From assembly GCA_963744095.1 (NCBI GenBank), contig CAVUSH010000003.1, forward strand, positions 625,334 through 689,333: a stretch of 64,000 bases of DNA, given 5' to 3'. Below are positions 31,225 through 49,121 of this stretch, piece after piece. A program made the position numbers and the translations under genes. Source of the stretch: an uncultured Chloroflexia bacterium. Lineage in GTDB: Bacteria; Chloroflexota; Limnocylindria; Limnocylindrales; CSP1-4. Each line of letters starts with the position of its first letter. Position 1 is the stretch's first letter. The notes under the pieces are model-generated. The model made no database searches and was not told where the DNA came from. It saw only the letters and a list, made by a program, of their open reading frames with translations.

Positions 31225-31626
31225 TCAGTCCTCCGCGGGGATCACGTAGAAGGGGAAGACAAGGTTCCGGGGGTCGTTCGACGACCCGACCGTGTAGCGG
31301 ATGTCGATGTAGAGCGTCGAGGCGTCGTCCTCGTCGGGGGCCACGTCGACCTCCTGCACGGCAATGCGGGGCTCCCAGCGGCGCAACGAGGCGCGCACGT
31401 CGGCGGCGATCCGGCCGAACGTCGCGGCATTGGCCGGCGAGAAGACCTCGTCGTGGATCCCGCACCCGAACTCCGGCCGCATGGGCCGCTCGCCGTAGGC
31501 CGTGCCGAGGACCAGGCGGATGCTCTCCTCGATCTCCCGCTCGCGGGTGACCAGGGCGATCCCGCCCGTCGCGTCGGTACGCAGGGGGAAGGCCCACCCG
31601 GCGCCGATGAACTCGTCGTTGACCAT
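31225..31626 (-). CDS. gp25/GpW baseplate protein (Afp9-like)
   Basis: IG.GW.FP, L.T..GERPMRPEFG, WEPRI, NLVFPFY. Confidence 0.93.
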   Translation of the reverse strand: MVNDEFIGAGWAFPLRTDATGGIALVTREREIEESIRLVLGTAYGERPMRPEFGCGIHDEVFSPANAATFGRIAADVRASLRRWEPRIAVQEVDVAPDEDDASTLYIDIRYTVGSSNDPRNLVFPFYVIPAED

Positions 31627-31643: not shown

Positions 31644-33419
31644 CTAACCCAGCTGGACCTGGCTGCCGCTGACCTTGGCGATGCCGCTGGTGCCGACCTC
31701 GACCCCGGCCGAGCCCGTCAGCTTCGCCTGGGCGCTGGACGTGATCTCGACTCCGCCCTCGCCGCTGATCTTGACCTTGCCGGTCGCCTTGATCTCGATG
31801 TCGCTCGTGGCCGTCAGCACGATCTTTCCCTCGGATGTGCCGCTCAGCTTCCTGTCAGTCCGGCTCAGGAGGAGGACCACTTCCTCCGCTGCCGTCTGCA
31901 TGCCCAGCGACGAGTTGCCGGGCTTGTCCCACATGTAGACCTGGTTGCCGTCGCGGCTGACGAAATGGCGCCCGTTGAGCTTCCCGCCGTCCACCTCGAT
32001 CGGCGGCGGCGCGTCGCTGCCGTTCCAGAGGCCACCGACGACGAAGGGGCGCTGGCGGTCGCCGCTCTCGAAGGCGACGAGGACCTCGTCGTTGACCTCG
32101 GGGATCCAGACGGTGCCGCGCGACGCGCCGTTGCCGGGCGCGGCGACCCGGGCCCAGTGGCTCTCGTAGTCGGCCGACAGGGACGGGAAGCGGAGCTTCA
32201 CCCGCCCCAGGCGATCGGGGTCGTCGTTGTCCGTCACGATGCCCACGACCACGCCCGCGGACGAGCCGTTCCCGGCCCCTCCGGCGCCGCCTCCGCCCCC
32301 GCTCGCGCCGCCGGCCGCCGCCCCCGCGACGAGACCCATGAGCGAGCGGTCCTGGCGGCCGCTCACGATGAAATGGGTCCGGTAGCCGTCCTGGGGATCG
32401 TACGTGTGGCGCGTGTGGGTGAGCGTGTAGCGCCCGGCGAACGGCGCGGCGACCTGCGAGACGCTCACGGCCGCGCCGGCCTTCACCCGGGGGTTGCCGC
32501 GGGCGATGCCGGAGGCCTCGGCGAACGCGCTCCCGACCTGCTCGGCAAGCGCCTCCGCCGCCCGGTCGGCCTCGGCCTGCGATGGATAGCCGCCCTCGAC
32601 AACGAGGACCGGGCTGCCGAAGCGCCCGGCAAGGCTCCCTGGGTCGTCGGCGAGCTGGGCGGCCGTCGAGCGCGCCTGGGCCGTCCCCACGATCGCCTGC
32701 TTCGTCGACGGATCCCAGCCGCGGACCTCGACGCGGGAGACCTGGCCCGACGACGTCACCCGGGGCCGGAAGTCGAGGAGATCCTGGCCGAACACCAGCT
32801 GGAGCGGGTCGCTCGAGCTGAAGTCCCCACCCTCGGGCGCCTCTGCCGCCTCTCGGGGCCGCCGGAACTCGAGCTTGCCTTCGACGACAGCAACCTCGAA
32901 GCCGACCTCGCGGGCAAGGCCCCGCAGGAACTCCCAGTCCGTCTGGCCCGTCTGGCCGACGTGCTCGTGGACCCGGCCGCTGTCGTCGATCGTCCCGGCG
33001 CCCAGTCCCACCTGCGACGCGATCGTGCGGGCGATGTCGGAGTACTTGACGTTCTGGAAGGTGGCCGAGCTGCGGCCGCGGGAGAGGCGGTGGGCGTGGT
33101 CGTAGCCGCGCGCCACCAGGAGCGGCGCCTTCCCCTCGCGATAGACGCCCTCGAGCGCGGTCACCTCGCCGCTGACCAGCAGGCTGGGGGTGCCCTCCCC
33201 CATGGCCGACGTGGAGACCTTCACCGCGCTGCCCACGCGCAGACGGGCCGTCTCGGCGACGGTCATGTCGGCGGTCTCCTGGAACGTGAGCTCGAACGTG
33301 TCGGGCTGGTGGAGATGGTCGTCCACGGCAACGCGCACGAGTGCCGTCTCGGCCGCGCCGTCGAGCGGCTGGCCGTCCACCTCGACCTTGATCGCGCTCG
33401 CGAGCGCGGCGTCGGGCAC
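31644..33419 (-). CDS. vgrG: VgrG-like hub-spike (Afp8-like)
   Basis: gp27-like hub (Q..TDWEFL, GWDP..K), OB fold GRVKLRFP/WARV/PEVNDEVLVAF, short beta-helical tail. Confidence 0.9.
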   Translation of the reverse strand: MPDAALASAIKVEVDGQPLDGAAETALVRVAVDDHLHQPDTFELTFQETADMTVAETARLRVGSAVKVSTSAMGEGTPSLLVSGEVTALEGVYREGKAPLLVARGYDHAHRLSRGRSSATFQNVKYSDIARTIASQVGLGAGTIDDSGRVHEHVGQTGQTDWEFLRGLAREVGFEVAVVEGKLEFRRPREAAEAPEGGDFSSSDPLQLVFGQDLLDFRPRVTSSGQVSRVEVRGWDPSTKQAIVGTAQARSTAAQLADDPGSLAGRFGSPVLVVEGGYPSQAEADRAAEALAEQVGSAFAEASGIARGNPRVKAGAAVSVSQVAAPFAGRYTLTHTRHTYDPQDGYRTHFIVSGRQDRSLMGLVAGAAAGGASGGGGGAGGAGNGSSAGVVVGIVTDNDDPDRLGRVKLRFPSLSADYESHWARVAAPGNGASRGTVWIPEVNDEVLVAFESGDRQRPFVVGGLWNGSDAPPPIEVDGGKLNGRHFVSRDGNQVYMWDKPGNSSLGMQTAAEEVVLLLSRTDRKLSGTSEGKIVLTATSDIEIKATGKVKISGEGGVEITSSAQAKLTGSAGVEVGTSGIAKVSGSQVQLG

Positions 33420-33422
33420 CCC

Positions 33423-34124
33423 TCAGCCCTCCCGCGAGGCGAGGCGCCGCGCTTCGTCGGCGGTGGGGACGAGGAGGCGCGTCCCGGCCGCCACGCGGAG
33501 GGGATCGTCGATCTCGTTGAAGGCGGCGATCCCCCGCCAGAGGCTGGCGTCCCCGTACTCGCGCCAGGCGACTGAGTGGAGGCTGTCGCCCGCCCCGACG
33601 AGGTGGCTCCGGCGGCTCTCATGTGATCCGGACGACGGGTTCTGCTTCGGCGAGTCCTCCGGGACTTCCTCGAGGGAGATCGTCGCGCTCGCACGGACCG
33701 GCGTTCCGTCGGGTTTGAAGAGGACGTACTTGGCATTGACGGTCTTGAGGAAGAACCTCAGGTCCGCGAGGATGCGGTTGCTGCCCCATTCGAACCCGAG
33801 GACCGGCGGGCGCGGCAGCTTCTTGGTGATCGACGTGGGCGTCGGCCTGGTCCACCCGAAGAGCGTGGTCACGCTGCGCGTGACGTCGGCGTCGGCCGCG
33901 TCCCAGGCGTCGAACCAGATCTCCATCTGGACGGTCTGGGGGCCGGCGCCCGTGAACTGGGGCTTGCCGGCGGATCCGGCCCCCTTCTGCTGGGGCCGGT
34001 TCCAGTTGGCCGACTTGGCAGTGGTCAGCTCGGCCGGGTTGTACATGAACGTGAGCTCGCGCGTCTCCGGGTCGCCGTCGACGACTCGCAGCTTCGCCTT
34101 CTGGAGCGCGCCGCCGCTGAGCAT
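33423..34124 (-). CDS. CIS tube-initiator with LysM (Afp7-like)
   Basis: FMYNP.EL, F..DGTPVRA, QNPSSG, GDSL..VAW.EYGD...WR.IA..N.IDDP. Confidence 0.9.
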   Translation of the reverse strand: MLSGGALQKAKLRVVDGDPETRELTFMYNPAELTTAKSANWNRPQQKGAGSAGKPQFTGAGPQTVQMEIWFDAWDAADADVTRSVTTLFGWTRPTPTSITKKLPRPPVLGFEWGSNRILADLRFFLKTVNAKYVLFKPDGTPVRASATISLEEVPEDSPKQNPSSGSHESRRSHLVGAGDSLHSVAWREYGDASLWRGIAAFNEIDDPLRVAAGTRLLVPTADEARRLASREG

Positions 34125-34552
34125 CAACGTGCGAACCCGTTGTGGACCAGCTCGAGGACCTCGAGAGCCACGGCGTTCGTCCCCGTGTCGAGGGTCGGTC
34201 CGGACCAGCGGACCGGGTAGATCCCCTGGAGACGCCAGCTGGCGACGGTCTCGCCACCGCCATCGAGCACAGCGATCTCGGCGGTCGACCGCTTCGGATC
34301 GCTGGCCACCGAAGCCAGCCAGGCGGCCACCTTCTGGGTGTCTCGATCGACCGGGCGCGTGAGCTTCAGGTTCTGGTACTTGGCCCGCCCGGGGAACCGG
34401 TGGACGTAGTCGTTGTTGCCGCCCTCCTTCACCTCCTGGACGTCGTACTCGACCGTCAGCCCCTCGCACTTCGTCCACGAGCCGAGGTCGGTCTGGTCGT
34501 CGAGGGTCACCTTGAAGCAGAGGGTCAGGCCGTAGTTCACGCGCTCGGACAT
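34124..34552 (-). CDS. T4 gp19-like tube protein 2 (Afp5-like)
   Basis: CEGL, EGGNN..., L.L.R, P.RWSGP, ELVH.GF. Confidence 0.9.
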   Translation of the reverse strand: MSERVNYGLTLCFKVTLDDQTDLGSWTKCEGLTVEYDVQEVKEGGNNDYVHRFPGRAKYQNLKLTRPVDRDTQKVAAWLASVASDPKRSTAEIAVLDGGGETVASWRLQGIYPVRWSGPTLDTGTNAVALEVLELVHNGFAR

Positions 34553-37356: not shown

Positions 37357-37815
37357 TCACTTCACCCGCTCGAGCCGCTCGCAGACGATCGTGACCTCCT
37401 CGACGGCCGGGGCGTTGTCGCCGGCCTTCATCCCCGACGCGGTGAGCTTGGAGACCCACGCGTCGAAGAAGTTGTACCGGGCGACCTCGCCGTAGATGAA
37501 GTCGAGCTGGACGATGGAGCCGTTCTTGCGAGCGCCGATCAGGTCTCCCTCGAGGGCGGCCTTGTGCCAGTTCCACAGGTCCATGGACGAGTCGGCGGCG
37601 CGCTTGAGGGTGATCGTCGGCGGCTTCGTCGCCCCGATCATCTTCTTGAGGATCGGCTTGCCGAGGGCGTCGTTGGCCTTCAGCTCCACCACCTCGATCT
37701 CCGAGGTGATACCGCCCACCTCCTGGAACGACGCGATGGCCGTCCCGTCGACCTGGATGAGGAAGCGCTGCGCGACGAGCGTGTCGAGCGGCAGCGAGGG
37801 GACTCCGGTTGGCAT
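37357..37815 (-). CDS. T4 gp19-like major tube protein (Afp1-like)
   Basis: F.EV.G, ITLKR, W.W, RKNGSI, EEVTI..E. Confidence 0.92.
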   Translation of the reverse strand: MPTGVPSLPLDTLVAQRFLIQVDGTAIASFQEVGGITSEIEVVELKANDALGKPILKKMIGATKPPTITLKRAADSSMDLWNWHKAALEGDLIGARKNGSIVQLDFIYGEVARYNFFDAWVSKLTASGMKAGDNAPAVEEVTIVCERLERVK

Positions 37816-37862: not shown

Positions 37863-39380
37863 TCACTCGCTGAGTGACGTGCCGCCCGAGAACTGGGCAA
37901 GGCGGAAGATCACGAACTCCGCCGGCTTGACCGGGGCGATCCCGATCTCGACGATGAGCTGCCCCGCGTCGATCGTCTCGGCCGTGTTGTTCTCCCCGTC
38001 GCACTTCACGAAGAAGGCCTCCGCCGGGGTCGATCCGAAGAGGGCGCCGTCGCGCCAGGTCCGGACGAGGAAGGCCCCGATCGTCCGCTTCACCCGCTCC
38101 CAGAGGTCGATGTCGTTCGGCTCGAAGACGACCCATTGGGTGCCGAGGAGGATCGACTCCTCGAGGTAGTTGAACAGGCGGCGCACGTTGAGGTAGCGCC
38201 ACGCCGGGTCGGAGGAGAGCGTCCGGGCGCCCCAGACGCGGATCCCGCGGCCGGGGAAGGTGCGCACGCAGTTGATCCCGATCGGGTTGAGCTGGTCGTG
38301 CTCGGCCCGGGTCAGGTTGAGCTCCAGGGCGATCGCCCCGCGGACGACCTCGTTCGCCGGCGCCTTGTGGACGCCGCGCTCGCCGTCGTTGCGGGCCCAG
38401 ATGCCGGAGATGTGGCCGGACGGGGGCACGAAGGTCGCCTGGCCGGCAACCGGGTCGAAGACCTTGATCCAGGGCCAGTAGAGGGTGGCGTACTTCGAGT
38501 CGTAGCCGGCCTTGTCCTGGCGCCACTCCTTGACCTGCTGGGCGTTGTAGTCGGGCGGCGTGTCGAGGATGGCGACGCGGTCACCCATCAGCTCGCAGTG
38601 GGCGATGATCGCCAGCTGGACGGCCTTGAGCCCGTCCATGTCCACGACGCCGGCCTGGTAGAGCGCCATCAGGTCGGGCGCGGCCACCATCGTGATCTCC
38701 TCGACGGCCTCGAGGCCGCCGAAGCCGGTCCGGTCCGCCGAGTTCCCGACGTACTCGTCCGGGGTCACCCGGACCGGCCCGCTGACGGTGCCGCCGGCCA
38801 GGGCCGACTTCGTCCCGACGGCCGGGGCAACCTCGCCCTTGGCGACCTCCTCGAGGCGGACGAGCTTCGAGGCCTTCACCGCGGTGAAGACACTCTGCTT
38901 GCCGCGCTTGACCGTGACGTTGTCGTAGACCTCCTGCTCGGAGCCGCGGGACACCGTCAGCTTGAAGACGCCCTCGCCGGGCTCGGACGGCTCCCCGACC
39001 TCGACCGCGATCTCGTTGCCCGCGCCACCGGCCTCGAGGGCCACGACGCGGAAGGCCGCCTGCGACTTGTCCGTGGAGCTGGGGAGCTCAAGGCGGGCGC
39101 TCGGCGCGCCGGCGCCATCGGCGCCGATCCGGACGATGTACGCCGTCGTGCCGCCGTTGAGGAAGAAGCCGTAGACCGAGTGCGCGAGATAGGACCCCTC
39201 CATGAAGTCGCCGAACGAGGCGACGAACTGGCTCCAGTTCGTGACCATCACCGGCGTGTTGGCGGGGCCGCGCTGGGCGAGCCCCACGAAGGCCGCGACG
39301 GCCGTGCCCACGCCCTCGATGGGGCGAGAGGCGGCCTGCACCTCCTCGACGTAGACGCCGGGCGAAAGGTAGTTCGGCAT
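37863..39380 (-). CDS. Contractile tail sheath
   Basis: Y.SPGVYVEE, AAFVG, YWPWI, PPSG, GVHKAPAN, WGARTL, YLNVRR, FEPN, APVKPAEFV.F. Confidence 0.96.
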   Translation of the reverse strand: MPNYLSPGVYVEEVQAASRPIEGVGTAVAAFVGLAQRGPANTPVMVTNWSQFVASFGDFMEGSYLAHSVYGFFLNGGTTAYIVRIGADGAGAPSARLELPSSTDKSQAAFRVVALEAGGAGNEIAVEVGEPSEPGEGVFKLTVSRGSEQEVYDNVTVKRGKQSVFTAVKASKLVRLEEVAKGEVAPAVGTKSALAGGTVSGPVRVTPDEYVGNSADRTGFGGLEAVEEITMVAAPDLMALYQAGVVDMDGLKAVQLAIIAHCELMGDRVAILDTPPDYNAQQVKEWRQDKAGYDSKYATLYWPWIKVFDPVAGQATFVPPSGHISGIWARNDGERGVHKAPANEVVRGAIALELNLTRAEHDQLNPIGINCVRTFPGRGIRVWGARTLSSDPAWRYLNVRRLFNYLEESILLGTQWVVFEPNDIDLWERVKRTIGAFLVRTWRDGALFGSTPAEAFFVKCDGENNTAETIDAGQLIVEIGIAPVKPAEFVIFRLAQFSGGTSLSE

Positions 39381-39520: not shown

Positions 39521-39570
39521 CCCTCCGGCGGCTTGCCCGCGCGGACGCCCCCGGGGACGCTGGGCGGGCG

Positions 39571-40314
39571 ATGATCCAGGACGTCGACGAGACCCTGCGC
39601 GCGCTCGTCAAGCGCGAAGCCCTCAACGGGAGCCAGGTCGAGATCGCCTTCGACGCCCCGACCCGTGACTGGTCGGCGCGGCGCAATGCGCCAACGATCA
39701 ACCTCTACCTCTACGACATTCGCGAGGACATGACCCGACGCGACGCGGCCATGGCCCCGGTCCGCTCCGATGAGGGGTACGTTGCCGGCCACTCCCCCAT
39801 CCCCCGTCGCTACAAGCTGTCGTACCTCCTGACGGCCTGGACGCAGCGCCCCGAGGACGAGCACCGCCTCCTGGCGGCCTGCCTGGGCGCACTCATCCGG
39901 TACGACGTCCTGGCCCCGGCGGACATGCACGGCGCCCTCGCCGAGCAGCCGATCCCCGCCCTCGTGACCGTCGCCCTCCCGCTCGGGCCGGACCGCTCCA
40001 TCGCGGACATCTGGTCGGCGATGGGCGGCGAGATGAAGCCGTCGCTCGACGTCGTCGTCACGGTCCCGTTCGTGGTGAGTCGGGAGGTGGCGGCCGGCGC
40101 GCCGGTGCGCGAGATGCCGCGCATCTCGATCCTGGGACCCGACGGCGCGGACGGCCCGCGGATCACCCGGGCTCGGGTACGGCGAGGCCCGTCGGGGGCC
40201 CGCACCGGGCCGCTCCGCCCCGACGAGCCCATCGCCCAGGACGAGACGGTCGTCGGCGGCACGCCGGAGATTCCAGGCCGCCTGTTCCGGGTGCGCGGCC
40301 ACCCGCGTCCCTGA
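39571..40314 (+). CDS. CIS cap/terminator protein (Pvc16/Afp16, DUF4255-like)
   Basis: FDAP, NLYLYDIRED, LSYLLTAW, EH.LL, W.A.G...KPSL. Confidence 0.88.
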   Translation: MIQDVDETLRALVKREALNGSQVEIAFDAPTRDWSARRNAPTINLYLYDIREDMTRRDAAMAPVRSDEGYVAGHSPIPRRYKLSYLLTAWTQRPEDEHRLLAACLGALIRYDVLAPADMHGALAEQPIPALVTVALPLGPDRSIADIWSAMGGEMKPSLDVVVTVPFVVSREVAAGAPVREMPRISILGPDGADGPRITRARVRRGPSGARTGPLRPDEPIAQDETVVGGTPEIPGRLFRVRGHPRP

Positions 40315-40320
40315 CCTTCG

Positions 40321-42414
40321 ATGGTTCTCGCCGTCCCCACCGACGCGTCGGCTCGCCACCTTGCCGGCCGCCTGGGCCTCGTGGCCGACCGCGTCCAGCT
40401 CGCCGTGGACCGGCGGCGGATGGGCGACCCGGACCCGGACGACCAATTCCGCGGCCTTTACGTCTCCGACGCCCAGGTCGACCACCTGCTCGGCGGGGGG
40501 CACGGGCCGCTCCTGCTAGCGGACGCCGACGGCGCAGCGGCGGAGCGCCGCGCGGCGGTCGAGGCCAGGGCGGACGCCGCAGAGGCGGCCGGCGAGGAGG
40601 TGCGGCTGCGCCGGCTGGCGCGCAGCTTCGCCCTGGAATCCCTCGACGTGGAGCTCCTTCTCGTGGCCCTGGCGCCCGATCTCGACCCCCGGTTCGAGCG
40701 CCTCTATGGCTACCTCCACGACGATGTCTCGCGGCGACGGGCGAGCGTCGGTCTCGCCCTCGAGCTGTCCGGCGTAGGCGAGGGGTCCGGGACCGGTCGG
40801 GCCCGGCTCGGCCCGCTCGCTCCGCTGGTTGCGGGTGGGCTCCTCGTGGTGGAGGACGGCGACCGACCCTTCCTGACCCGCGCCCTGCGCGTTCCCGACC
40901 GCGTCGCGGCCCACCTGCTGGGTGACGCAGCGCCCGACCCCGCGGTGGAGGCCCTCGCCACGATCGCCGCAGCCCACGACGCGGCCGGGACCGACGCGCT
41001 CGAGGGCGGCCTGCGCGCTGGTGCCCGCCTCGCCTACGTGCGGGAGCGGATCGGCACCGCCGCGGTGACGCTCGCCGCGCGCGCGCTCGGACGCGTGGGG
41101 CCTCCGCCGGTGGTGGTGGACCTCGGACGGCTCGTCCCGGGCGATGATCCCCGCGAGGCCGCGGCCGCGGCGATCCGGGAGGCGCGGCTCCGCGGGACCG
41201 GCCTCGTGGCCGGACCCCTCGACGTCGTCGCGGAACGCGGGCCGGGGGCCGTCCGCGCCTGGGCGGAGGCGGCCTGCCCGGTCGTCCTCCACGGGTCGCG
41301 CGGCTGGGACCCCGGCTGGTCGCGGTCGGTGCCGTTCATCCTGGACCCGGACCTCCCGTCCGCCGCCGAGCGGCGGGCCGTCTGGCTGGCCTCGCTGGAC
41401 GGAGCCGCGTCGGCGGACCTGGGGGCAGCCGTGGCCGCGCTTCCCTTCCGCCTTGCCCCCGAGGCCGTCGCCCGTGCCGCCGAGGCCGGTCGCCTTGCCG
41501 CCGCGGCGGCGGGCCGCGACCTGGGCGTGAGGGACATCGCCGCGGGCGCCCGGGCCCAGAACGCGGCCGGCCTGGAGCGCCTGGCCCGGCGCCTCGAGCC
41601 GCGGGTCACCTGGACCGACCTGGTCCTTCCGTCCGGCGTCCTGGAGCAGCTTCGCGAGCTGACCGGCCGGGCCCGCCATCGCGACCTGGTCCTCGACGAA
41701 TGGGGCCTGGCCCGGACGTCGCTCAAGGGCCGCGGGGTCACGGCCCTCTTCGCCGGCGACTCCGGGACGGGCAAGACCATGTCAGCCGAGGTCATCGCGG
41801 GCTCTCTCGGGCTCGACCTGTACGTCATCGACCTCTCCACGATCGTCGACAAGTACATCGGCGAGACGGAGAAGAATCTCGACCGCGTCTTCACCGAGGC
41901 CGACCGGGTGAACGGCGTCCTCCTCTTCGACGAGGCTGACGCGATCTTCGGCAAGCGCTCGGAGGTCAAGGACGCCCGGGATCGCTACGCCAACGTGGAG
42001 GTCGCCTACCTCCTCCAGCGGATGGAGCAGTTCGACGGGATGGCGATCCTCACGACGAACCTGCGGGCAAACGTCGACGAGGCGTTCCTTCGCCGGCTCG
42101 ACGCCATTGTCGACTTCCCCCTTCCGGAGATCGACGACCGACGCCGCCTCTGGGAGCGCAACCTCGCGGCCGGCGCCCCGAAGGCGGATGACATCGACGT
42201 GGACTTCCTGGCCCGCCGCTTCGCGCTCTCGGGGGGCAACATCCGCAACGTCGCCGTCGGAGCGGCATTCCTCGCCGCCGAGGCGGGGCGGTCGCTGAAC
42301 ATGGAGCATCTCGTCCGGGAGACCGCCCGCGAGTACCGCAAGCTGGGGCGCCTGTGCGTCGAGGCCGAGTTCGGGCCGTACTTCCCGCTGGTTGCGAACG
42401 TGGCCGGAGGCTGA
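40321..42414 (+). CDS. CIS AAA+ ATPase (Afp15/Pvc15-like)
   Basis: LYGYLHDD N-domain, GDSGTGKT, KYIGETEKNL, FDEAD, DRYAN.E..YLLQR.E. Confidence 0.93.
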   Translation: MVLAVPTDASARHLAGRLGLVADRVQLAVDRRRMGDPDPDDQFRGLYVSDAQVDHLLGGGHGPLLLADADGAAAERRAAVEARADAAEAAGEEVRLRRLARSFALESLDVELLLVALAPDLDPRFERLYGYLHDDVSRRRASVGLALELSGVGEGSGTGRARLGPLAPLVAGGLLVVEDGDRPFLTRALRVPDRVAAHLLGDAAPDPAVEALATIAAAHDAAGTDALEGGLRAGARLAYVRERIGTAAVTLAARALGRVGPPPVVVDLGRLVPGDDPREAAAAAIREARLRGTGLVAGPLDVVAERGPGAVRAWAEAACPVVLHGSRGWDPGWSRSVPFILDPDLPSAAERRAVWLASLDGAASADLGAAVAALPFRLAPEAVARAAEAGRLAAAAAGRDLGVRDIAAGARAQNAAGLERLARRLEPRVTWTDLVLPSGVLEQLRELTGRARHRDLVLDEWGLARTSLKGRGVTALFAGDSGTGKTMSAEVIAGSLGLDLYVIDLSTIVDKYIGETEKNLDRVFTEADRVNGVLLFDEADAIFGKRSEVKDARDRYANVEVAYLLQRMEQFDGMAILTTNLRANVDEAFLRRLDAIVDFPLPEIDDRRRLWERNLAAGAPKADDIDVDFLARRFALSGGNIRNVAVGAAFLAAEAGRSLNMEHLVRETAREYRKLGRLCVEAEFGPYFPLVANVAGG

Positions 42415-42415
42415 G

Positions 42416-44917
42416 GTGCCGCGTCGCTATCTCCCCCGCCGCCGGCTCGACGAGAGCTTCGAGTCTGAGCTCACGCCGACCGGGACCAGCGCACCCGTCC
42501 TGACCGACGAGCGGGCCAGCGCTCGACTCACCGAGCTGCTCATCACCAGGGGTCCGGAGAGCCGGAACGGCAAGGGCACGGCGGTTCCACCGACCTCTGT
42601 GGCCCGGCTCCAGCGCCTGGCCGGGAACCGGGCGGTCGCCGATCGACTCGGGGGAAACGGCGGGACGGTGCAGCGGTCCCGAAACCGGGCCTCCGACGAA
42701 GAGGAGTCCATCCCGGAGCCCGCCCAGGCGGGGCCGGTCGAGGCGGCTCCCGGGGCCGAGGCCGAGGCCGCGCCGCCCGCCCAGGCGGGGCCGGTCGAGG
42801 CGGCTCCCGAGGCCGGGGCCGGGGTCGCGCCGCCCGCCCAGGCGGGGCCGGTCGAGGCGGCTCCCGAGGCCGGGGCCGGGGTCGCGCCGCCCGCCCAGGC
42901 GGGGCCGGTCGAGGCGGCTCCCGAGGCCGGGGCCGGGGTCGCGCCGCCCGCCCAGGCGGGGCCGGTCGAGGCGGCTCCCGAGGCCGGGGCCGGGGTCGCG
43001 CCGCCCGCCCAGGCGGGGCCGGTCGAGGCGGCTCCCGAGGCCGGGGCCGGGGTCGCGCCGCCCGCCCAGGCGGGGCCGGTCGAGGCGGCTCCCGAGGCCG
43101 GGGCCGGGGCCGCGCCGCCCGCCCAGGCGGGCCAGCTGCCCGAAGCCGCCGCGGCACCGAATGCCGATGAGGCGGCCAAGGCGGGGATCGTCGAATCGGC
43201 CGGGAAGGCGGCCGGCGCCAAGGACGAACCCACCGGCCTCGACAAGCTGGTTCAGGAACGCGTCGCCCCGATCGGCGGTGAGGGCGGCCGGGTACTGCCC
43301 GAGGCGGAGGTCGCCGGTGAGGGCGGCCGGGTCCTGCCCGACGCGGAGATCGCCGGCGAGAAAGGCCGGGTCCTGCCCGACGCGGAGATCGAGGCCAGGC
43401 CCGGCCCCGCCGGGCCCGAGGGAGGCCGGGTCTTGCCCGGGGCGGAGGTCGCCGGCGAGGGAGGCCGGGTCCTGCCCGACGCGGAGATCGAGGCCAAGCC
43501 CGGCCCCACCGGGCCCGAGGGCGGATCGAACGTGCCGGTGGAGGCACCGGCTCCGGCCGGCGCGGGCGGTCCCGGCAGCGCAGCCCCTGCGACCGACGTC
43601 CCCGCCACCCCGGCGCCGGAACCGGGCGGCCCGGAGTCGGCCGGCCCGGAGTCGTCGGAGCCATCCGGAGTAGCGCCCGCGCCGGTCGTGGAGCCAGCCG
43701 AGGAAGAGCCGCTGCCGGCCGGCGACCAAGTGCAGATCGCCACCATGAATGTCGCCGGAGCCAACGCCGTCGTCACCGCCGCCAAGGCGACGACAGGGGC
43801 GCAGAAGCTGTCCGCGGTCGCGGTCTCGTTGGCCGCGGCGGGGTTCGCGAACGCGCTGCGGCTGACGTTGAGTCGGGCCATCCCGTGGCGCACCAAGATC
43901 CTCGGCATTGCCCCGAAGGTGGTCGGCAGGGCAACGCGGATGCTGACGGGCCTCCGCACGAATGCGAGCAAGGCGATCCAGGGCATCGTGCTCAAGGTGA
44001 AGTCGGTTGCCGATGCGGCCAAGGGCGTCATCGCCTGGGCGCGCCAGGCCGTCGGGCTCGCCCGCGCCGCCGCGCGGGGGATCGGCAGCAAGCTCCGCTC
44101 GGCCCTGGGCGGGGCAGGCGAAGCGGTCTTGAAGCTCCTCTCGGGACTCCTCGATCCTGCCCGCAAGGCGCTCGGGGGGCTCCTCAAGGCCGGATCCGAG
44201 ATCCTGCTCGACGGGATCAGGCGGGTCCGGGCCAACGCGGCCAGCGCCGTCGCCTTCGTGGCGGAAGAGGTGGGCACGCGACTCGCGGCCGCCCTCGCCA
44301 TGGTGGTGGACCTCGTCCGCGCGGTCGTGAAGGCCGCGCTGGAGCAGGCGCGCCGGGCAATGGCCGTGATCATCGAGAAGGTCGGGGCGATCCGCGCCCA
44401 GCTCCTGGCCGTGACGATCCTCGCCCGGTCGATGCTCGCTGCCGCCCGGTCGCAGGCCCTCCAGGGGACGACCGCGGCCCTGGCGGCCATCGCAGTTGCG
44501 ATCGCCAACGGGTATGCCCAGCTCCGGTCCGGTGGCGGACGGAGGGCCTTCCGCCGGTTCGCCAAGATGTGGCGCGGCTTCATCCGGACGATACGGTCGC
44601 GCACCAAGAGCCGGCTGGCGTCGGGGCTGGCTTCCGTGAAGCTCTACGACCGAGCCGGAACGGCGGCGGTCGGGGCCGCGCGGGCCGAGGCCCGGGCCAA
44701 CTACGGGGCGACGCGGGCGTCGCTCACGAACCTGGAGACGACCGCGGCGATCGAGGCAGCCGAGCTCGGTCTGTCGGTCGGCGTTGCCGCCGCGGTGGCA
44801 GCGGGCGCCATCGACGCCGCGGTGACGGAGGGAGAGACGCTCATTCGCGAGATCGCCGGCGAGGGCGATGGCGATGCCCGCGAGCTCCAGGGGCTCATCA
44901 ACCGGGTCGGCAAGTGA
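42416..44917 (+). CDS. Candidate CIS cargo / tape-measure-related protein
   Basis: LQRLAGNRAV...VQR motif, two repeat arrays, long Ala-rich amphipathic helical C-terminal half. Confidence 0.65.
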   Translation: MPRRYLPRRRLDESFESELTPTGTSAPVLTDERASARLTELLITRGPESRNGKGTAVPPTSVARLQRLAGNRAVADRLGGNGGTVQRSRNRASDEEESIPEPAQAGPVEAAPGAEAEAAPPAQAGPVEAAPEAGAGVAPPAQAGPVEAAPEAGAGVAPPAQAGPVEAAPEAGAGVAPPAQAGPVEAAPEAGAGVAPPAQAGPVEAAPEAGAGVAPPAQAGPVEAAPEAGAGAAPPAQAGQLPEAAAAPNADEAAKAGIVESAGKAAGAKDEPTGLDKLVQERVAPIGGEGGRVLPEAEVAGEGGRVLPDAEIAGEKGRVLPDAEIEARPGPAGPEGGRVLPGAEVAGEGGRVLPDAEIEAKPGPTGPEGGSNVPVEAPAPAGAGGPGSAAPATDVPATPAPEPGGPESAGPESSEPSGVAPAPVVEPAEEEPLPAGDQVQIATMNVAGANAVVTAAKATTGAQKLSAVAVSLAAAGFANALRLTLSRAIPWRTKILGIAPKVVGRATRMLTGLRTNASKAIQGIVLKVKSVADAAKGVIAWARQAVGLARAAARGIGSKLRSALGGAGEAVLKLLSGLLDPARKALGGLLKAGSEILLDGIRRVRANAASAVAFVAEEVGTRLAAALAMVVDLVRAVVKAALEQARRAMAVIIEKVGAIRAQLLAVTILARSMLAAARSQALQGTTAALAAIAVAIANGYAQLRSGGGRRAFRRFAKMWRGFIRTIRSRTKSRLASGLASVKLYDRAGTAAVGAARAEARANYGATRASLTNLETTAAIEAAELGLSVGVAAAVAAGAIDAAVTEGETLIREIAGEGDGDARELQGLINRVGK
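42719..43132 (+). repeat. 57-bp tandem repeat (PAQAGPVEAAPEAGAGVAP), 7 copies plus a partial
   Basis: Five identical central units and two variants. Confidence 0.92.
43277..43523 (+). repeat. 39-bp-based repeat (GEGGRVLPxAExA), 5 copies with inserts
   Basis: Visible in both DNA and translation. Confidence 0.8.
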
Positions 44918-44933
44918 CGAGGTGGAACGAGCG

Positions 44934-45998
44934 ATGAACGAGGAACCCGGCTGGCTGCGGAGCGAGGCCGCGGCGCGGTCCAGGGAGACCGAGCTCGACG
45001 GCGGCACGAAGAAGCCGGCGGGCAGGGGCGCAGGCCGCGAGCAGGATCGCGGCCTGGCGGCGGAGGCGTCGCGCGCGCTCGCTGCCGGTCAACCAGAGAA
45101 GCTGCGGCCCGGCGCGGTGATGCACCTCCAGAGAGCCGCCGGGAACGCAGGCGTCGCGCGCTTCCTGGGCGAGGAGCGCGAGCCCGAATCTCCGGTCAAG
45201 GGGATCGTGGGCCGTGGCGCCGGCGCCCCCCTCGACGACGCGTCTCGCGCGCGCATGGAAGCCAGCTTCGGCACCGACTTCTCGGATGTTCGTGTCCATA
45301 CCGGCAGCTCCGCGGCCGAGTCGGCCCGGGCGGTGGACGCCCACGCCTACACCGTCGGGAACGAGGTCGTCCTGGGCGACGGGCAGGCGCCGGGTTCGCC
45401 GGCATACGAGCGGACGCTGGCCCACGAGCTGATGCACGTCGTCCAGCAACGGTCGGGTCCGGTGGACGGAACGCCCGCCGGAGGCGGCATCAGCGTCTCC
45501 GATCCCGCGGACCGCTTCGAGCGGGCGGCGGAGGCCACGGCGGACGACGTCGTGAGCACCGGGCGCGCGCCCGAGGCCTCCACGGGGAACGTCTCCAGCA
45601 CATCCGTGCAGCGCGAACGACCGTTGGAGGAGGAGGAGCGCGACCCGACCGAGGCGGACACCCTGCCGTCGATGGCGGAGACGGCGACGGCCGAGACGGC
45701 CCAGGCGGGGGCGAAGACACCGGCGACGGCCGAGACGGCCCAGGCCGGTGCCGCCGAGGGCGCCGTGGTCGAGGGGCAGCCGAACCGCGAGCCGACCTCG
45801 GCCCCCGAGGCCGAGTCCACGGCCGGGACCGCCCAGGCCGGCCCGATCGAGGCTGCGCCAGGCGAGGAGGAGCAGGAAGAGGTCCAGGAGCTTGCGATCC
45901 AGCGCCAGGAGGCGCCCGAAGAGGACGAAGAGGTCCAGGAGCTCGCGATCCAGCGTCTCCAGCGCGGTGACGACCTGAGCGGCGCGCGCATTGCCTAG
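44934..45998 (+). CDS. DUF4157 (eCIS core domain) protein
   Basis: LQRAAGNAGV, G.PLD...R..ME..FG.DFSDVRVH, A.AYTVG, LAHELMHVVQQ, D.FE..A, acidic tail with QR repeats. Confidence 0.9.
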   Translation: MNEEPGWLRSEAAARSRETELDGGTKKPAGRGAGREQDRGLAAEASRALAAGQPEKLRPGAVMHLQRAAGNAGVARFLGEEREPESPVKGIVGRGAGAPLDDASRARMEASFGTDFSDVRVHTGSSAAESARAVDAHAYTVGNEVVLGDGQAPGSPAYERTLAHELMHVVQQRSGPVDGTPAGGGISVSDPADRFERAAEATADDVVSTGRAPEASTGNVSSTSVQRERPLEEEERDPTEADTLPSMAETATAETAQAGAKTPATAETAQAGAAEGAVVEGQPNREPTSAPEAESTAGTAQAGPIEAAPGEEEQEEVQELAIQRQEAPEEDEEVQELAIQRLQRGDDLSGARIA

Positions 45999-46037
45999 GA
46001 CGTTCCGAGGTCATCCTCGTACGAGGCTCGACTGCCC

Positions 46038-46958
46038 ATGAGCCTGGTTCACGACCGTGACGTCGACGCCGCCCTGCCGGGCCACGGCCCAGCCGTCGAC
46101 CGCGGTCCGGGGCCGCTCCGCCCGATCGACCCTGGTCCCGCGGGACCCGGCAGCGCGCCGGTCGCAGGCGCGATCGACGGGGTTCCTGCCGCCTGGACGG
46201 CGGCGCTCGCGGGCGGGCGTCGGGGCGGTCATCCGGTCGTCCGGGGCTCCGTGACCCGGCTCCAGGCGGCGGCCGGCAACTCGGCCGTTGCCGACCTGCT
46301 GACCTCGACGGCGGGCGACTCCCGCGCGACGCGGCGCGCGGGTCCGACGCTCCGTCACGCGGGCGAGGCCGACCTGCTCGGGACCGATCCGGGCGCCGCC
46401 TCGCTCGGAACCGGCGAGGCAGCCCCGCTCGACGAGCCCGGGCAGAGTCCCGCCACCCCCGCTCCAACCACGTCCTTCACGAAGGTCGGCCCGCCAACCA
46501 AGTCCGGCTACACGGTCTCGGGGACCCTCCGCAAGGCGGCCGAGGCGGTGGCGGCGCGCCCGGAGGCCGGGGCCACCATCACGACCCCGGATCTCGTCTC
46601 AGCCGGCAATGGCACGCGCATGACCCAGGCCCAGGTGACCGTGACCCAGGTCGTCGAGCTCCCCGACTGGGACGGCAAGGCCTCGGCGACGCAGAACCAG
46701 CGGACGGAATGGGACCGCTTCAAGGCCGCCATCACGGCCCACGAGGACGGCCACGTCGCGACGGACGTCACGGCGTTCGCCGGTGCCCATACGAAGATCC
46801 TGGCCAAGAAGACGACCGCCGAGTCGAACACGGAGTACGACACGATCGTGACCGGGGCCGACACGGCCAACGCGACCTTCGACACGAAGACCGACCACGG
46901 CCGCAATGCCGGCACGACCATCAACCCGAACATCGACGAGGTGACGAAGGTCCCCTGA
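46038..46958 (+). CDS. Candidate CIS effector with DUF922-like zinc-protease domain
   Basis: LQAAAGNSAV N-terminal motif, LPDW...WDRF......HEDGH (HExxH), D..T.HG. Confidence 0.7.
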   Translation: MSLVHDRDVDAALPGHGPAVDRGPGPLRPIDPGPAGPGSAPVAGAIDGVPAAWTAALAGGRRGGHPVVRGSVTRLQAAAGNSAVADLLTSTAGDSRATRRAGPTLRHAGEADLLGTDPGAASLGTGEAAPLDEPGQSPATPAPTTSFTKVGPPTKSGYTVSGTLRKAAEAVAARPEAGATITTPDLVSAGNGTRMTQAQVTVTQVVELPDWDGKASATQNQRTEWDRFKAAITAHEDGHVATDVTAFAGAHTKILAKKTTAESNTEYDTIVTGADTANATFDTKTDHGRNAGTTINPNIDEVTKVP

Positions 46959-47003: not shown

Positions 47004-47669
47004 CTAGATCAGCCCCTGGCGGATCGCGTAGGCCACCGCGTGCGTCCGGTTGCGGAGGTCGAGGCGCGACGTGATGTCATGGATCACGTTCTTCACGGTC
47101 CGTTCCGAGAAGAAGAGGCTGTGCCCGACCTCGGCGGTGTCGAGCCCGTCGGCGAGAAGCCGCAGGACCGCCACCTCGCGCTCCGTGAGGCCTGCAAAGG
47201 TGAGGCCGCGGGGGTGCAGCACCTGCCGCTGCAGGCGACCGACCTGGGAGAGGAGCCGGCCAAGGAGGTCCGGCGGGAGCGTCCCCTCGCCGACAGCGGC
47301 AGCCCCGATCGCCGACGCGAGCTGGGCGGGCGTCGCCTGGCTGCGGCGGACGACCCCGCTCACGCCGGCCTCGACGGCCGCGAGAAGCCCGGCATCGTCC
47401 ACCTTCGCCACGAGGAGCACCACGTGCTCCTGGCCCGTGGCGCGGATCGTCCGGATCTCCCGCGTCGTGGCCTCGTCGACCTCGTCCGCCACGACCACGA
47501 CGACGCCGGCCGCTCCCGGCGCGACGGCGTCCACGACCTCCATCGTGGGCTGGTCGTGGAGCTGGGCGGCGAGCCCCGCCCGGGAGAGCGGATCGGTCGT
47601 CGCGATCGCGACCGCGAGACGTTCGAGCGGGAGGCTGCGCAGGGCGTGGACGGCGACGGACGACGTCAT
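47004..47669 (-). CDS. LuxR/NarL-family regulator with atypical receiver domain
   Basis: GLTERE..VLRLLADG, SERTVKN, LRNRTHAVAYA. The receiver lacks the canonical DD pair. Confidence 0.9.
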   Translation of the reverse strand: MTSSVAVHALRSLPLERLAVAIATTDPLSRAGLAAQLHDQPTMEVVDAVAPGAAGVVVVVADEVDEATTREIRTIRATGQEHVVLLVAKVDDAGLLAAVEAGVSGVVRRSQATPAQLASAIGAAAVGEGTLPPDLLGRLLSQVGRLQRQVLHPRGLTFAGLTEREVAVLRLLADGLDTAEVGHSLFFSERTVKNVIHDITSRLDLRNRTHAVAYAIRQGLI

Positions 47670-47734
47670 CGGCTGGTCCCCCATGTGCAGGACCGGTCTC
47701 CTGCCGGCCACGCGACGGCAGCATGCGAGGGGGG

Positions 47735-47764
47735 ACCTAACGGGCACCTAACGCCCACCTAACG
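47735..47764 (-). promoter_or_regulatory. Three direct ACCTAACG repeats in 11-bp phase (SARP/BTAD-type site) upstream of luxR
   Basis: Copies start at 47735, 47746 and 47757. Minus-strand CATGCT -10-like hexamer at 47720-47725. Confidence 0.7.
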
Positions 47765-47837: not shown

Positions 47838-49121
47838 ATGGGAGCCCTCGTCACGCTGTCCGAGAAGTCCATCGAGGTACTGCCGGGCGCCGTCGCCACG
47901 TGCACGGTGACCGTCAAGAACACCGGCACCGTCGTCGACCAGTTCACCATCGACATCCTCGGCGATCCGGCCCCCTGGGCCGCCGCCGAGCCGCCGACGC
48001 TGTCGCTCTTCCCCGGCGCCGAGGAGTCCACCGCGATCTTCTTCCGGCCGCCCCGGGCAGCCGACACGCCGACCGGCGAGCTGCCGTTCGGTGTTCGCGC
48101 CAGGTCGCGCGAGGACCCGGCCGGGTCCGCGGTCGAGGAGGGCGTCCTCCTCGTGGGCGCCTACCAGGACACGTTCGCCGAGCTGGTCCCGCGCACCTCG
48201 CGCGGCAGCCGGGGGGCAACCCACGAGCTTGCCGTCGACAACCGGGGCAACAGCCGGCTCAACGCCACCGTCACCGCCGGCGACCAGGACCAGCTGCTCG
48301 GGTTCGACGTGACACCCCCGGGCCTCGTGGTGGATCCCGGGACGGCCGGCTTTGCGAAGGTCCGGGTCAAGCCCCGCAAGCGCTTCTGGCGCGGCCAGCC
48401 GAAGACCCGGCCGTTCAAGGTCGCCGTCCAGGGCGAGGGCGGCCCGCCCATCCTCCTCGACGGATCGATCCTCCAGGAAGCCCTGCTGCCGCGCTGGCTC
48501 ATCCCGGCGCTGCTCGCCGCGCTCGCCGCGCTGATCGCCCTGATCGTCATCTGGCTGATGTTCCTCCAACCCGCCATCAAGAGCGCCGCAACCCAGGCTC
48601 TCGAGGATGCCGGGATCACCCCGCTCCCCACGCAGGCCGGCGGTGGCGGCGGAGCGGGAGGCGGTGGCGGGACCGCCACGCCGACGCCTGCCCTGACGAC
48701 CGCACCGGCGACCCCGACCGCGACGCCGGGCCCCACGCCTCCTCCGGGCGAGACGCCCACACCCGCTCCCACGCCCACACCGGCTCCCACGCCGACCCCG
48801 CCGCCGGTCGGCGAGGGGGTTCCTGCCGACGGCCGGCTGGCGGTCGACGGCACCTACCCGAACAGCACCACGTTCGCCAAGGTCTTCTACCTGACCGACC
48901 TCGTCTTCGCGAACCCGAGCGGGAAGGCCGGGACCCTGAAGCTGAAACGGGGGCCGCTCGACCTGATCACGCTGCGCCTCGAGAACTTCCGGGACCTCGA
49001 CTTCCACTACGTCACCCCGATCGTCGTCCAGCCCGGCGAGAAGCTGGCCCTGGTCGTGAGCTGCACCGGCGGCGGCGCATGCGACCCGTCGGTCTACTAC
49101 TCCGGGTTCACGAAGCCCTGA
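47838..49121 (+). CDS. CIS-associated bitopic membrane protein (N-terminal Ig-like domains, TM, Pro/Thr linker, external domain)
   Basis: V.NTG.VVDQF, L.L.PG, ELVP..S, V.N.GN N-region as in so-called hydrolytic proteins of Streptomyces CIS loci. One TM. Confidence 0.7.
   Translation: MGALVTLSEKSIEVLPGAVATCTVTVKNTGTVVDQFTIDILGDPAPWAAAEPPTLSLFPGAEESTAIFFRPPRAADTPTGELPFGVRARSREDPAGSAVEEGVLLVGAYQDTFAELVPRTSRGSRGATHELAVDNRGNSRLNATVTAGDQDQLLGFDVTPPGLVVDPGTAGFAKVRVKPRKRFWRGQPKTRPFKVAVQGEGGPPILLDGSILQEALLPRWLIPALLAALAALIALIVIWLMFLQPAIKSAATQALEDAGITPLPTQAGGGGGAGGGGGTATPTPALTTAPATPTATPGPTPPPGETPTPAPTPTPAPTPTPPPVGEGVPADGRLAVDGTYPNSTTFAKVFYLTDLVFANPSGKAGTLKLKRGPLDLITLRLENFRDLDFHYVTPIVVQPGEKLALVVSCTGGGACDPSVYYSGFTKP

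Follow-up and report, generated by a model that had tools for sequence, protein, structure and literature searches.

The eCIS Locus and Three Adjacent Candidate Cargo Genes

The window analysed here is the whole stretch of 64,000 nucleotides at positions 625,334 to 689,333 of contig CAVUSH010000003.1 (GenBank assembly GCA_963744095.1), from an uncultured Chloroflexia bacterium whose genome comprises 3,213,094 bases (3.2 Mb) in 9 contigs, with about 72% G+C, and is 84.6% complete. It holds a locus for an extracellular contractile injection system (eCIS), in which three consecutive genes, designated A, B and C below, directly follow the gene of an AAA+ ATPase and each encode the motif LQxxAGNxxV within an N-terminal leader. 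We found that this motif is real, conserved at the protein level, N-terminal in location, combined with diverse partner domains, and tightly linked to eCIS with respect to both genome and position. The features of this part of the locus are as follows.

39565..40314, plus strand: Pvc16_N (DUF4255), cap/terminator-type protein (PF14065, E 1.5e-40)
40321..42414, plus strand: Pvc15-type AAA+ ATPase of the eCIS, containing one AAA domain and, at the N-terminus, a winged-helix variant (PF22977 WHD, E 4e-29; PF00004 AAA, E 5.3e-24)
42416..44917, plus strand: cargo candidate A, 833 residues from GTG 42416; orthologues P0025-P0030 have the motif at residues 64-65
42599..42649, plus strand: motif block of A, VARLQRLAGNRAVADRL
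42718..43131, plus strand: tandem repeat in A, 57 nucleotides (19 residues), 7.3 copies, 98% matches, unit encoding AQAGPVEAAPEAGAGVAPP
44934..45998, plus strand: cargo candidate or adaptor B, 354 residues from ATG 44934 (PF13699, E 4.7e-30)
45117..45167, plus strand: motif block of B, VMHLQRAAGNAGVARFL
45228..45458, plus strand: DUF4157/eCIS_core domain of B, residues 121-197 of the open reading frame (ORF) starting at 44868
46038..46958, plus strand: cargo candidate C, 306 residues, start ATG 46038 (PF06037 DUF922, E 6.3e-17, residues 179-288)
46251..46301, plus strand: motif block of C, VTRLQAAAGNSAVADLL
47004..47747, minus strand: LuxR/GerE-type regulator at the end of the locus (PF00196 GerE, E 3.1e-13)

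Pvc16_N, the ATPase, A, B and C follow one another in this order on the plus strand, divergent from the sheath gene, and the LuxR/GerE gene on the other strand ends the locus. A preliminary description of the window had placed the three genes directly downstream of the ATPase, and this is borne out by the coordinates, the ATPase gene occupying 40321-42414 and A beginning at 42416. Orthologues of the ATPase occupy the equivalent position in the loci of relatives, and the likely starts of A, B and C were likewise taken from orthologues. Pvc16_N was present as a single copy in a search of the whole genome and served as the eCIS marker throughout the analysis. The divergent structural operon contains the following genes.

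37863..39380, minus strand: eCIS sheath gene, the first of the operon (Pfam Phage_sheath_1 and Phage_sheath_1C)
37357-37815 and 34124-34552, minus strand: two gp19-type tube genes (Phage_T4_gp19)
31644-33419, minus strand: VgrG-like spike (Phage_GPD/Phage_base_V)
31225-31626, minus strand: gp25 (GPW_gp25)
29272-31221, minus strand: Baseplate_J (Pfam Baseplate_J)

The Motif in Proteins A, B and C

Translation of the plus strand confirmed the motif strings that had been read from the DNA, namely LQRLAGNRAV in A (42608-42637), LQRAAGNAGV in B (45126-45155) and LQAAAGNSAV in C (46260-46289). With the orthologue-based starts, they begin at residues 65, 65 and 75, respectively, in agreement with the distance of about 65-75 residues from the N-terminus noted at first. 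When the 3,213,094-base genome was scanned in six frames with the regular expression LQ..AGN..V, the three matches obtained were all in A, B and C. The reversed pattern, used as a control, gave about 15 matches in 301 related genomes (approximately 0.05 per genome, counted by eye), so that three matches within 4.5 kb are far beyond chance.

In the alignment of the three proteins, the conserved block extends over 17 residues, V-x-[RH]-L-Q-x-x-A-G-N-x-x-V-A-x-x-L, and the flanks are dissimilar. Synonymous differences separate the three motif regions at the DNA level, and the two most similar ones, in A and C, are 75% identical over 48 nucleotides, which rules out a recent DNA duplication of the motif region. 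The claim that the proteins are otherwise unrelated also holds, as pairwise BLASTP matches were confined to the motif region and one copy of the A repeat unit in the tail of B.

Protein A consists of the motif leader, proline/alanine-rich tandem repeats and, over about 400 C-terminal residues, a helical part rich in alanine. No family was found for A in Pfam, NCBIfam or PHROGs, nor for B or C in PHROGs; a sequence search of the C-terminal 405 residues of A against the PDB returned just a designed helical bundle (E 0.053), and the ESM Atlas gave nothing above 0.83 for A. A diverged copy (72%) of the repeat unit lies in the C-terminal tail of B (window 45806-45870), so that the neighbours A and B have a repeat module in common besides the leader.

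In protein B, the leader hairpin is followed by a HExxH-containing zincin domain (DUF4157/eCIS_core) and an acidic, disordered tail in which EVQELAIQR is repeated. With 104 bits against a cut-off of 22, it belongs to PF13699, of which it is the sole gene found in a genome-wide search, and its zincin signature (H164-E165-x-x-H168 and Q171) is invariant in alignment A4. In C, the leader is followed by a DUF922 domain (62.5 bits against PF06037, cut-off 27) with the sequence HEDGH, a HExxH at residue 235 that marks C as a putative zinc peptidase. Neither A nor C matched PF13699 at E<=0.01; A has no Pfam family and C is a DUF922 protein, and B is thus the only one of the three with DUF4157, as had been stated.

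Sec and Tat signals are characterized by a hydrophobic h-region or a twin-arginine box at the extreme N-terminus, and type VII signals by WxG/YxxxD/E. On reading the sequences of A, B and C, with no signal-peptide predictor run, we saw no long hydrophobic stretch before the motif.

A profile, A3, built from 79 distinct segments, added two orphan genes with variant leaders in the genome of the window, at G000:C8:295133-295234 (-) and G000:C5:51116-51211 (-) (loci L107 and L108). The former (E 7.8e-4 to A3) lies in an ORF of 556 residues for which no Pfam family was found. The latter (E 0.23 to A3), with the motif LQQRHGNAAV, is a second DUF922 protein (PF06037, 63.7 bits, E 2.7e-17). The motif can therefore be used, as the preliminary description had anticipated, to find further candidates across the genome.

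Predicted Structure of the Leader

AlphaFold2 modelling of B with 72 aligned relatives gave helices at residues 36-50 and 59-77, the motif lying in the latter, with block-mean predicted local distance difference test (pLDDT) values of 86-91, a confident DUF4157 core (residues 98-210, pLDDT above 90) and a disordered tail. When residues 1-100 of B were folded alone, helices were predicted at residues 31-50 and 59-80, with a pLDDT of 92-94 over residues 41-70. Over the predicted helices of this shorter model the pLDDT is 87-94, and about 30 residues of low confidence precede them. Since the leader modelled alone has a high pLDDT, the hairpin is confidently predicted in the absence of the DUF4157 domain, and the motif is predicted to form the second helix of an autonomous N-terminal helical hairpin. 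The hydrophobic moments of the three motif blocks were low (0.22-0.37), and for this reason we do not call the motif helix strongly amphipathic.

A Foldseek search of the PDB with the B model found no match at E<=0.001; the top hits were weak ones to zincins, e.g., the VgrG2b effector domain (E 0.24). Complex prediction for the ATPase (alignment A5) and a 38-residue motif segment (A3) returned a score of 0.00 against a mark of 0.32, which is evidence neither for nor against an interaction.

Distribution of the Motif

When 5.8 billion proteins were searched with a profile of the three 40-residue segments, 126 hits were obtained at E<=10, and each of the 120 listed hits carries the motif, at residues 3-66. 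These are mostly small DUF4157 proteins, in which the spacing from the motif to HExxH is nearly fixed at 97-103 residues, together with A-like orthologues and about 20 proteins lacking DUF4157. In both the A-like and the B-like orthologues the motif is found at residues 64-65. Profile A3, searched against 1.84 billion cluster representatives, gave 3053 at E<=0.001; its top 150 included 145 new representatives, of which 144 have the motif, at a median residue of 44 (5th-95th percentile, 20-83). Two copies of the motif were observed in 20 of these 145 (P0124-P0150 and others), spaced by about 23-40 residues in some and by more than 80 in others.

At the DNA level, the strict LQxxAGNxxV pattern matched 86 times in 35 of 301 genomes of the class to which the window belongs, often two or three times within a few kb. 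Nearly all matches in eCIS-bearing genomes lie close to an ORF start and show a longer consensus, h-h-x-L-Q-R-x-A-G-N-x-A-V-x-x-L-L, called the extended consensus below. In a pattern scan with one genome per species, at least 121 loci were obtained; among those listed, about 100 show the extended consensus and about 17 appear chance-like, a division made by eye from the flanking hydrophobic positions and the ORF context. The record titles name Pseudonocardiales and Acidimicrobiia and, for consensus-like matches, Streptomyces, Solirubrobacteraceae, Chloroflexota, Limnocylindrales, Melainabacteria and Candidatus Methanoperedens.

Association of the Motif with eCIS

In the class sample of 301 genomes, a strict match was present in 24 of the 30 genomes with Pvc16_N, as compared with 11 of the 271 genomes without it, and relaxed versions of the motif were found in two more of the 30 (G239 and G182). 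Among the 86 matches, 38 lay within 20 kb of Pvc16_N, 37 of these being 2.4-8.0 kb downstream (34 on the same strand). This distance locates the motif in the genes after the ATPase, and the motif proteins of such loci combine an N-terminal position of the motif with a gene at the 3' side of the eCIS, next to the AAA+ ATPase.

The association was also evaluated in a phylum sample of 401 genomes, with thresholds of E<=0.001 for A3 and E<=1e-5 for Pvc16_N. As 19 candidates were scored per genome with a one-family profile, some carriers may have been missed in the following counts.

All 401 genomes (including the unpublished G524, which has both features): both, 29; Pvc16_N only, 47; motif only, 2; neither, 323
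Outside the family of the window and leaving out G524: both, 22; Pvc16_N only, 47; motif only, 1; neither, 306

Pvc16_N thus occurs in 29 of the 31 genomes with the motif, in comparison with 47 of the 370 genomes without it. In genomes from diverse taxa, selected by the flanking consensus of the motif alone, Pvc16_N was found in 15 of 15, and in genomes with a chance-like match it was found in 0 of 5. In G302, a distance of 2.7 kb separates Pvc16_N from the motif downstream of it; G303 has three matches about 6 kb downstream and four elsewhere, and all four matches of G305 are elsewhere. These data demonstrate that the motif predicts eCIS very well, yet is used in some eCIS lineages only, and that many of its carriers are orphan genes. 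The interpretation given in the preliminary description is supported in part. Its proposed check, enrichment near eCIS loci, had a favourable outcome both by genome (29/31 vs. 47/370) and by position (37/86); the motif is not, however, a signal general to eCIS (29/76).

A second eCIS lineage was observed in the class sample (L094, L095, L102 and L103), in which Pvc16_N lies in a frame of 442-480 residues and the N-terminal part of the ATPase cannot be aligned with that of the window. The two loci of this lineage that were examined (L094 and L095) have tandem DUF4157 domains without the leader motif, and both lineages coexist in G137 and G281. The first ~416 residues of the ATPases at motif-free loci could not be aligned with the ATPase of the window by tblastn, and the PF22977 WHD was weaker and partial in the ATPases of four loci without the motif (36-68 bits) as compared with four motif loci (84-108 bits). 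This covariation of the ATPase N-domain with the motif is confounded by lineage and was not counted as evidence.

Partner Domains of the Leader

After six chance-like matches had been left out (L046, L052, L057, L058, L061 and one of the two in L064), a Pfam scan was carried out on 76 motif ORFs from relatives. It assigned eCIS_core to 21 and other families to 16, with no family for 39. Among the 16, PG_binding_1 occurs in seven ORFs, Annexin in five and OmpA in two; the further families are DUF922, ADPrib_exo_Tox (in a 1728-residue motif protein), DUF6782, TPR and a weak Hcp. For the 145 global representatives, the corresponding numbers were 27, 9 and 109, many of the last being short fragments, and the 9 comprise the XOO_2897 deaminase, Peptidase_M10, M15_4, Aspzincin_M35, T6SS_HCP, GT41, PG_binding_1, TPR and Gly-zipper. 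The motif therefore precedes many unrelated domains, and the portability that had been proposed for it is supported by both collections. In neither collection, nor in the window proteins, did we find a Pfam or NCBIfam model covering the motif itself.

Partners turn over within the genus of the window: DUF4157 and DUF922 occur in separate genes here and in L085, and L084 and L087 have other partners. We also observed that L083 (3596-5236, minus strand), of the same genus, encodes a 547-residue fusion of DUF4157 and DUF922 with a single leader, whereas the separate genes in the window (44934-46958) and in L085 each have their own.

Two further architectures were encountered. The leader precedes an Hcp-like (T6SS_HCP) tube-fold domain in P0200 (200 residues, 42 bits) and, weakly (22.5 bits), in L043:3544-4134 (-). 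In the metagenomic protein P0159 (556 residues), an AAA domain is joined to the motif and to the beginning of eCIS_core, whether by genuine fusion or by readthrough of the ATPase stop codon; in either case, the protein reflects the same gene order.

Relation to DUF4157 and to the [VILM]-Q-R Box

The motif occurs without DUF4157 in 55 of the 76 ORFs of relatives and in 118 of the 145 global representatives. Where both are present, the motif precedes the Pfam DUF4157 domain by about 30-40 residues and falls outside its model. Conversely, the eCIS genomes G287, G092, G246 and G153 have DUF4157 genes beside the eCIS and no A3 hit at E<=0.01. When the sequences upstream of DUF4157 were read in G287, G246 and G153, the motif was absent, and G246 and G153 had short PVQR, LQRK or IQRH boxes only. 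Being separable in both directions, and with its hairpin predicted in the absence of the domain, the motif is not a mere N-terminal extension of DUF4157; DUF4157 and the leader are separate modules.

A second box, [VILM]-Q-R, was found 15-44 residues after the motif in 30 of the 76 ORFs, as compared with 28 of 896 control windows, and in 33 of 132 global representatives, as compared with 37 of 599 controls. Such boxes also flank DUF4157 domains that have no motif. The frequency of the second box suggests that the leader may consist of two parts. In the window, examples are VQR in A (42665-42673) and the boxes in the tail of B (45870-45960).

Discussion

According to the available text of two sources, loading of eCIS cargo requires an N-terminal sequence and an AAA+ ATPase (PMC11297309; preprint 10.64898/2026.05.27.728243). 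For AlgoCIS, the accessible part of the latter describes the region upstream of DUF4157 as required for loading, DUF4157 itself as dispensable, and the ATPase Alg15 as required. Given this published requirement in the Photorhabdus virulence cassette (PVC), the antifeeding prophage (Afp) and AlgoCIS, the most economical reading of the motif is that of a cargo tag. We consider it probable, though far from assured, that the leader is a self-contained element, portable by recombination and placed on unrelated C-terminal domains, which marks the cargo or effectors of one cross-phylum class of eCIS. Such a leader would serve as an address tag by which the loading machinery of the eCIS picks proteins for packaging. 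Its reader may be the adjacent Pvc15-like AAA+ ATPase, alone or with a component of the particle, and the orphan leader-bearing genes elsewhere in the genome would encode further cargo of the same particle.

The parallels with known systems are partial. The cargo signals of PVC and Afp (Pdp1, Pnf and Afp18) are N-terminal, portable to foreign proteins and dependent on a Pvc15-type ATPase whose gene adjoins the cargo genes, as far as the portions available of the two sources cited above describe them. They occupy, however, the first 20-50 residues and are described there as disordered, hydrophilic and devoid of conserved sequence. The leader, in contrast, has 17 conserved residues, is defined by sequence, is found in other eCIS lineages, and is predicted to form a helix at about residues 45-80 within a hairpin. 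The parallel with PVC/Afp signals drawn in the preliminary description thus does not extend to their extreme N-terminal, disordered type. The AlgoCIS proteins Cgo1 and Cgo2 share with B the order of leader, DUF4157 and variable C-terminus, but in the text available their authors term the N-terminal domain disordered and system-specific, and our comparison is by description rather than by sequence.

Several points weigh against the cargo-tag reading. The loading role is one that we infer by analogy, and the known PVC/Afp signals, disordered and within the first 20-50 residues, differ from a predicted helix located further in. In the phylum sample, 47 of the 76 genomes with Pvc16_N lack the motif and 29 possess it. 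As related genomes have a common ancestry, the Fisher values, with odds ratios near 100, overstate independence and serve as description only. The partner domains are often cell-wall binding (PG_binding_1, OmpA and annexin) and not obvious toxins, and the "cargo" may therefore include accessory or anchoring proteins. In addition, ORFs in genomes of about 72% G+C were called mechanically, so that some lengths and motif positions are over-extended.

A broader form of the cargo-tag reading is one that we advance tentatively and that may well go too far. It holds that h-h-x-L-Q-R-x-A-G-N-x-A-V-x-x-L-L would be the common address tag of a major eCIS class that is present in several bacterial phyla and in at least one archaeon. 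The Pvc15-like ATPase or the tube interior would read this tag, which would define the full cargo set, orphans included. The motif and the hQR box would together constitute a leader in two parts, which the DUF4157 zincin might trim after delivery.

As an alternative, the leader may dock on a structural or adaptor partner, either the DUF4157 protein or a complex of spike and tube initiator, so that the cargo rides on the baseplate or spike, as has been proposed for Sle1/Sle2; we think this rather unlikely. [quoted passage not shown] A DUF4157 effector has also been described, in the available part of PMC11126660, to co-purify with tip, spike and tube-initiator proteins. The layout of our locus is similar to that of Sle1/Sle2, the helix-rich A and B, a small DUF4157 protein, being neighbours that diverge from the sheath gene. 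It differs in that the pair follows the ATPase and both partners bear the leader, and A is likened to Sle1 by layout, not by sequence. The small residues A+4, G+5 and A+8 of the motif would also suit tight helix packing. On the other hand, DUF4157 proteins bear the same leader themselves, which would be odd for a receptor, and most motif ORFs (55/76) lack DUF4157, many being distant from any DUF4157 gene. Moreover, the leader hairpin is predicted with equal confidence when the DUF4157 domain is absent, and the same domain is dispensable for loading in AlgoCIS, as far as the preprint 10.64898/2026.05.27.728243 is available.

It is also conceivable, but quite improbable, that the motif or the adjoining [VILM]-Q-R boxes are recognized or cut by the DUF4157 zincin, which would act in cis or in trans to remove the leader or free a toxin. 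This would agree with the prediction by Zhang et al. 2012 (PMC3482391, section 13) that DUF4157 is an autoproteolytic releasing peptidase, with the excess of second boxes 15-44 residues after the motif, and with the hQR boxes that flank motif-free DUF4157 domains and recur in the tail of B. A cleavage site alone, however, would not account for a 17-residue helix conserved across phyla, and the toxicity of Cgo1 was independent of its metalloprotease motifs in the available text of PMC8894135. Finally, that the block is functionless, being a leftover of ancestry or a homology arm aiding the exchange of cassettes between effector genes, is hardly credible, since, in spite of the fast partner turnover between close relatives and the DNA identity of A and C, the same 17 residues are conserved at the protein level with synonymous differences across phyla while their surroundings diverge, at a constrained distance from the N-terminus; this makes a purely historical remnant unlikely.

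The motif resembles the DUF4157/eCIS_core/PVC-metallopeptidase toxin marker, which likewise combines a constant N-terminal part with variable C-terminal toxins and is strongly eCIS-specific (PMC3482391, section 13; PMC8213781, as far as available). It differs in that the motif lies upstream of the Pfam domain and each occurs without the other. To treat DUF4157 and the leader as separate modules helps in assigning a role to each.

A comparable case is provided by type VI secretion. The MIX, FIX and RIX motifs are short N-terminal markers on polymorphic type VI effectors, including orphans encoded at a distance from the secretion cluster, and have been useful for effector discovery. The machine and the sequence are different here, and the comparison is one of analogy only.

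We found no description of the motif in the published literature under its spellings, although the supplements of PMC8213781 and PMC11297309 could hold one. It is unmentioned in the available portions of Geller 2021, Danov 2024, Xu 2022, Nagakubo 2024, the 2026 J Bacteriol paper, the 2026 PROCIS preprint, Vladimirov 2023 and Casu 2025, in those of the Streptomyces CIS papers PMC10020575 and PMC12237407, and in section 13 of Zhang 2012 (PMC3482391). Two eCIS publications state, in the text available, that no conserved sequence marks the signal. N-terminal eCIS signals as such are already known, and what appears to be new is a sequence-defined, cross-phylum class of them.

The identity and choice of the proteins carried by eCIS is an open question. 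If the motif is the signal of one large eCIS class, a simple profile would list candidate cargo genome-wide, orphans included, and the 17 residues would offer a defined target for mutagenesis and for leader-reporter fusions. The peptidoglycan-binding, annexin and OmpA-type partners would then be unexpected cargo or accessories. On the broader, more tentative reading given above, the motif would be the first sequence-defined loading signal of eCIS, with a role like that of MIX/FIX, and could serve as a tag for loading foreign proteins.

Other Genes in the Window

Directly past the LuxR gene lies an ORF of 427 residues (47838-49121, plus strand) with a hydrophobic segment and a proline/threonine-rich linker; it gave a sub-threshold Pfam match only (Cep192_D3, 24.5 bits) and lacks the leader motif. 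On the other side of the locus, a STAND/AAA-type regulator of 990 residues with BTAD and Trans_reg_C domains (23258-26230, plus strand) adjoins the eCIS structural genes. This regulator and the LuxR/GerE protein (47004-47747) are of types that Geller 2021, in the part of that paper available, gives as neighbours of eCIS.

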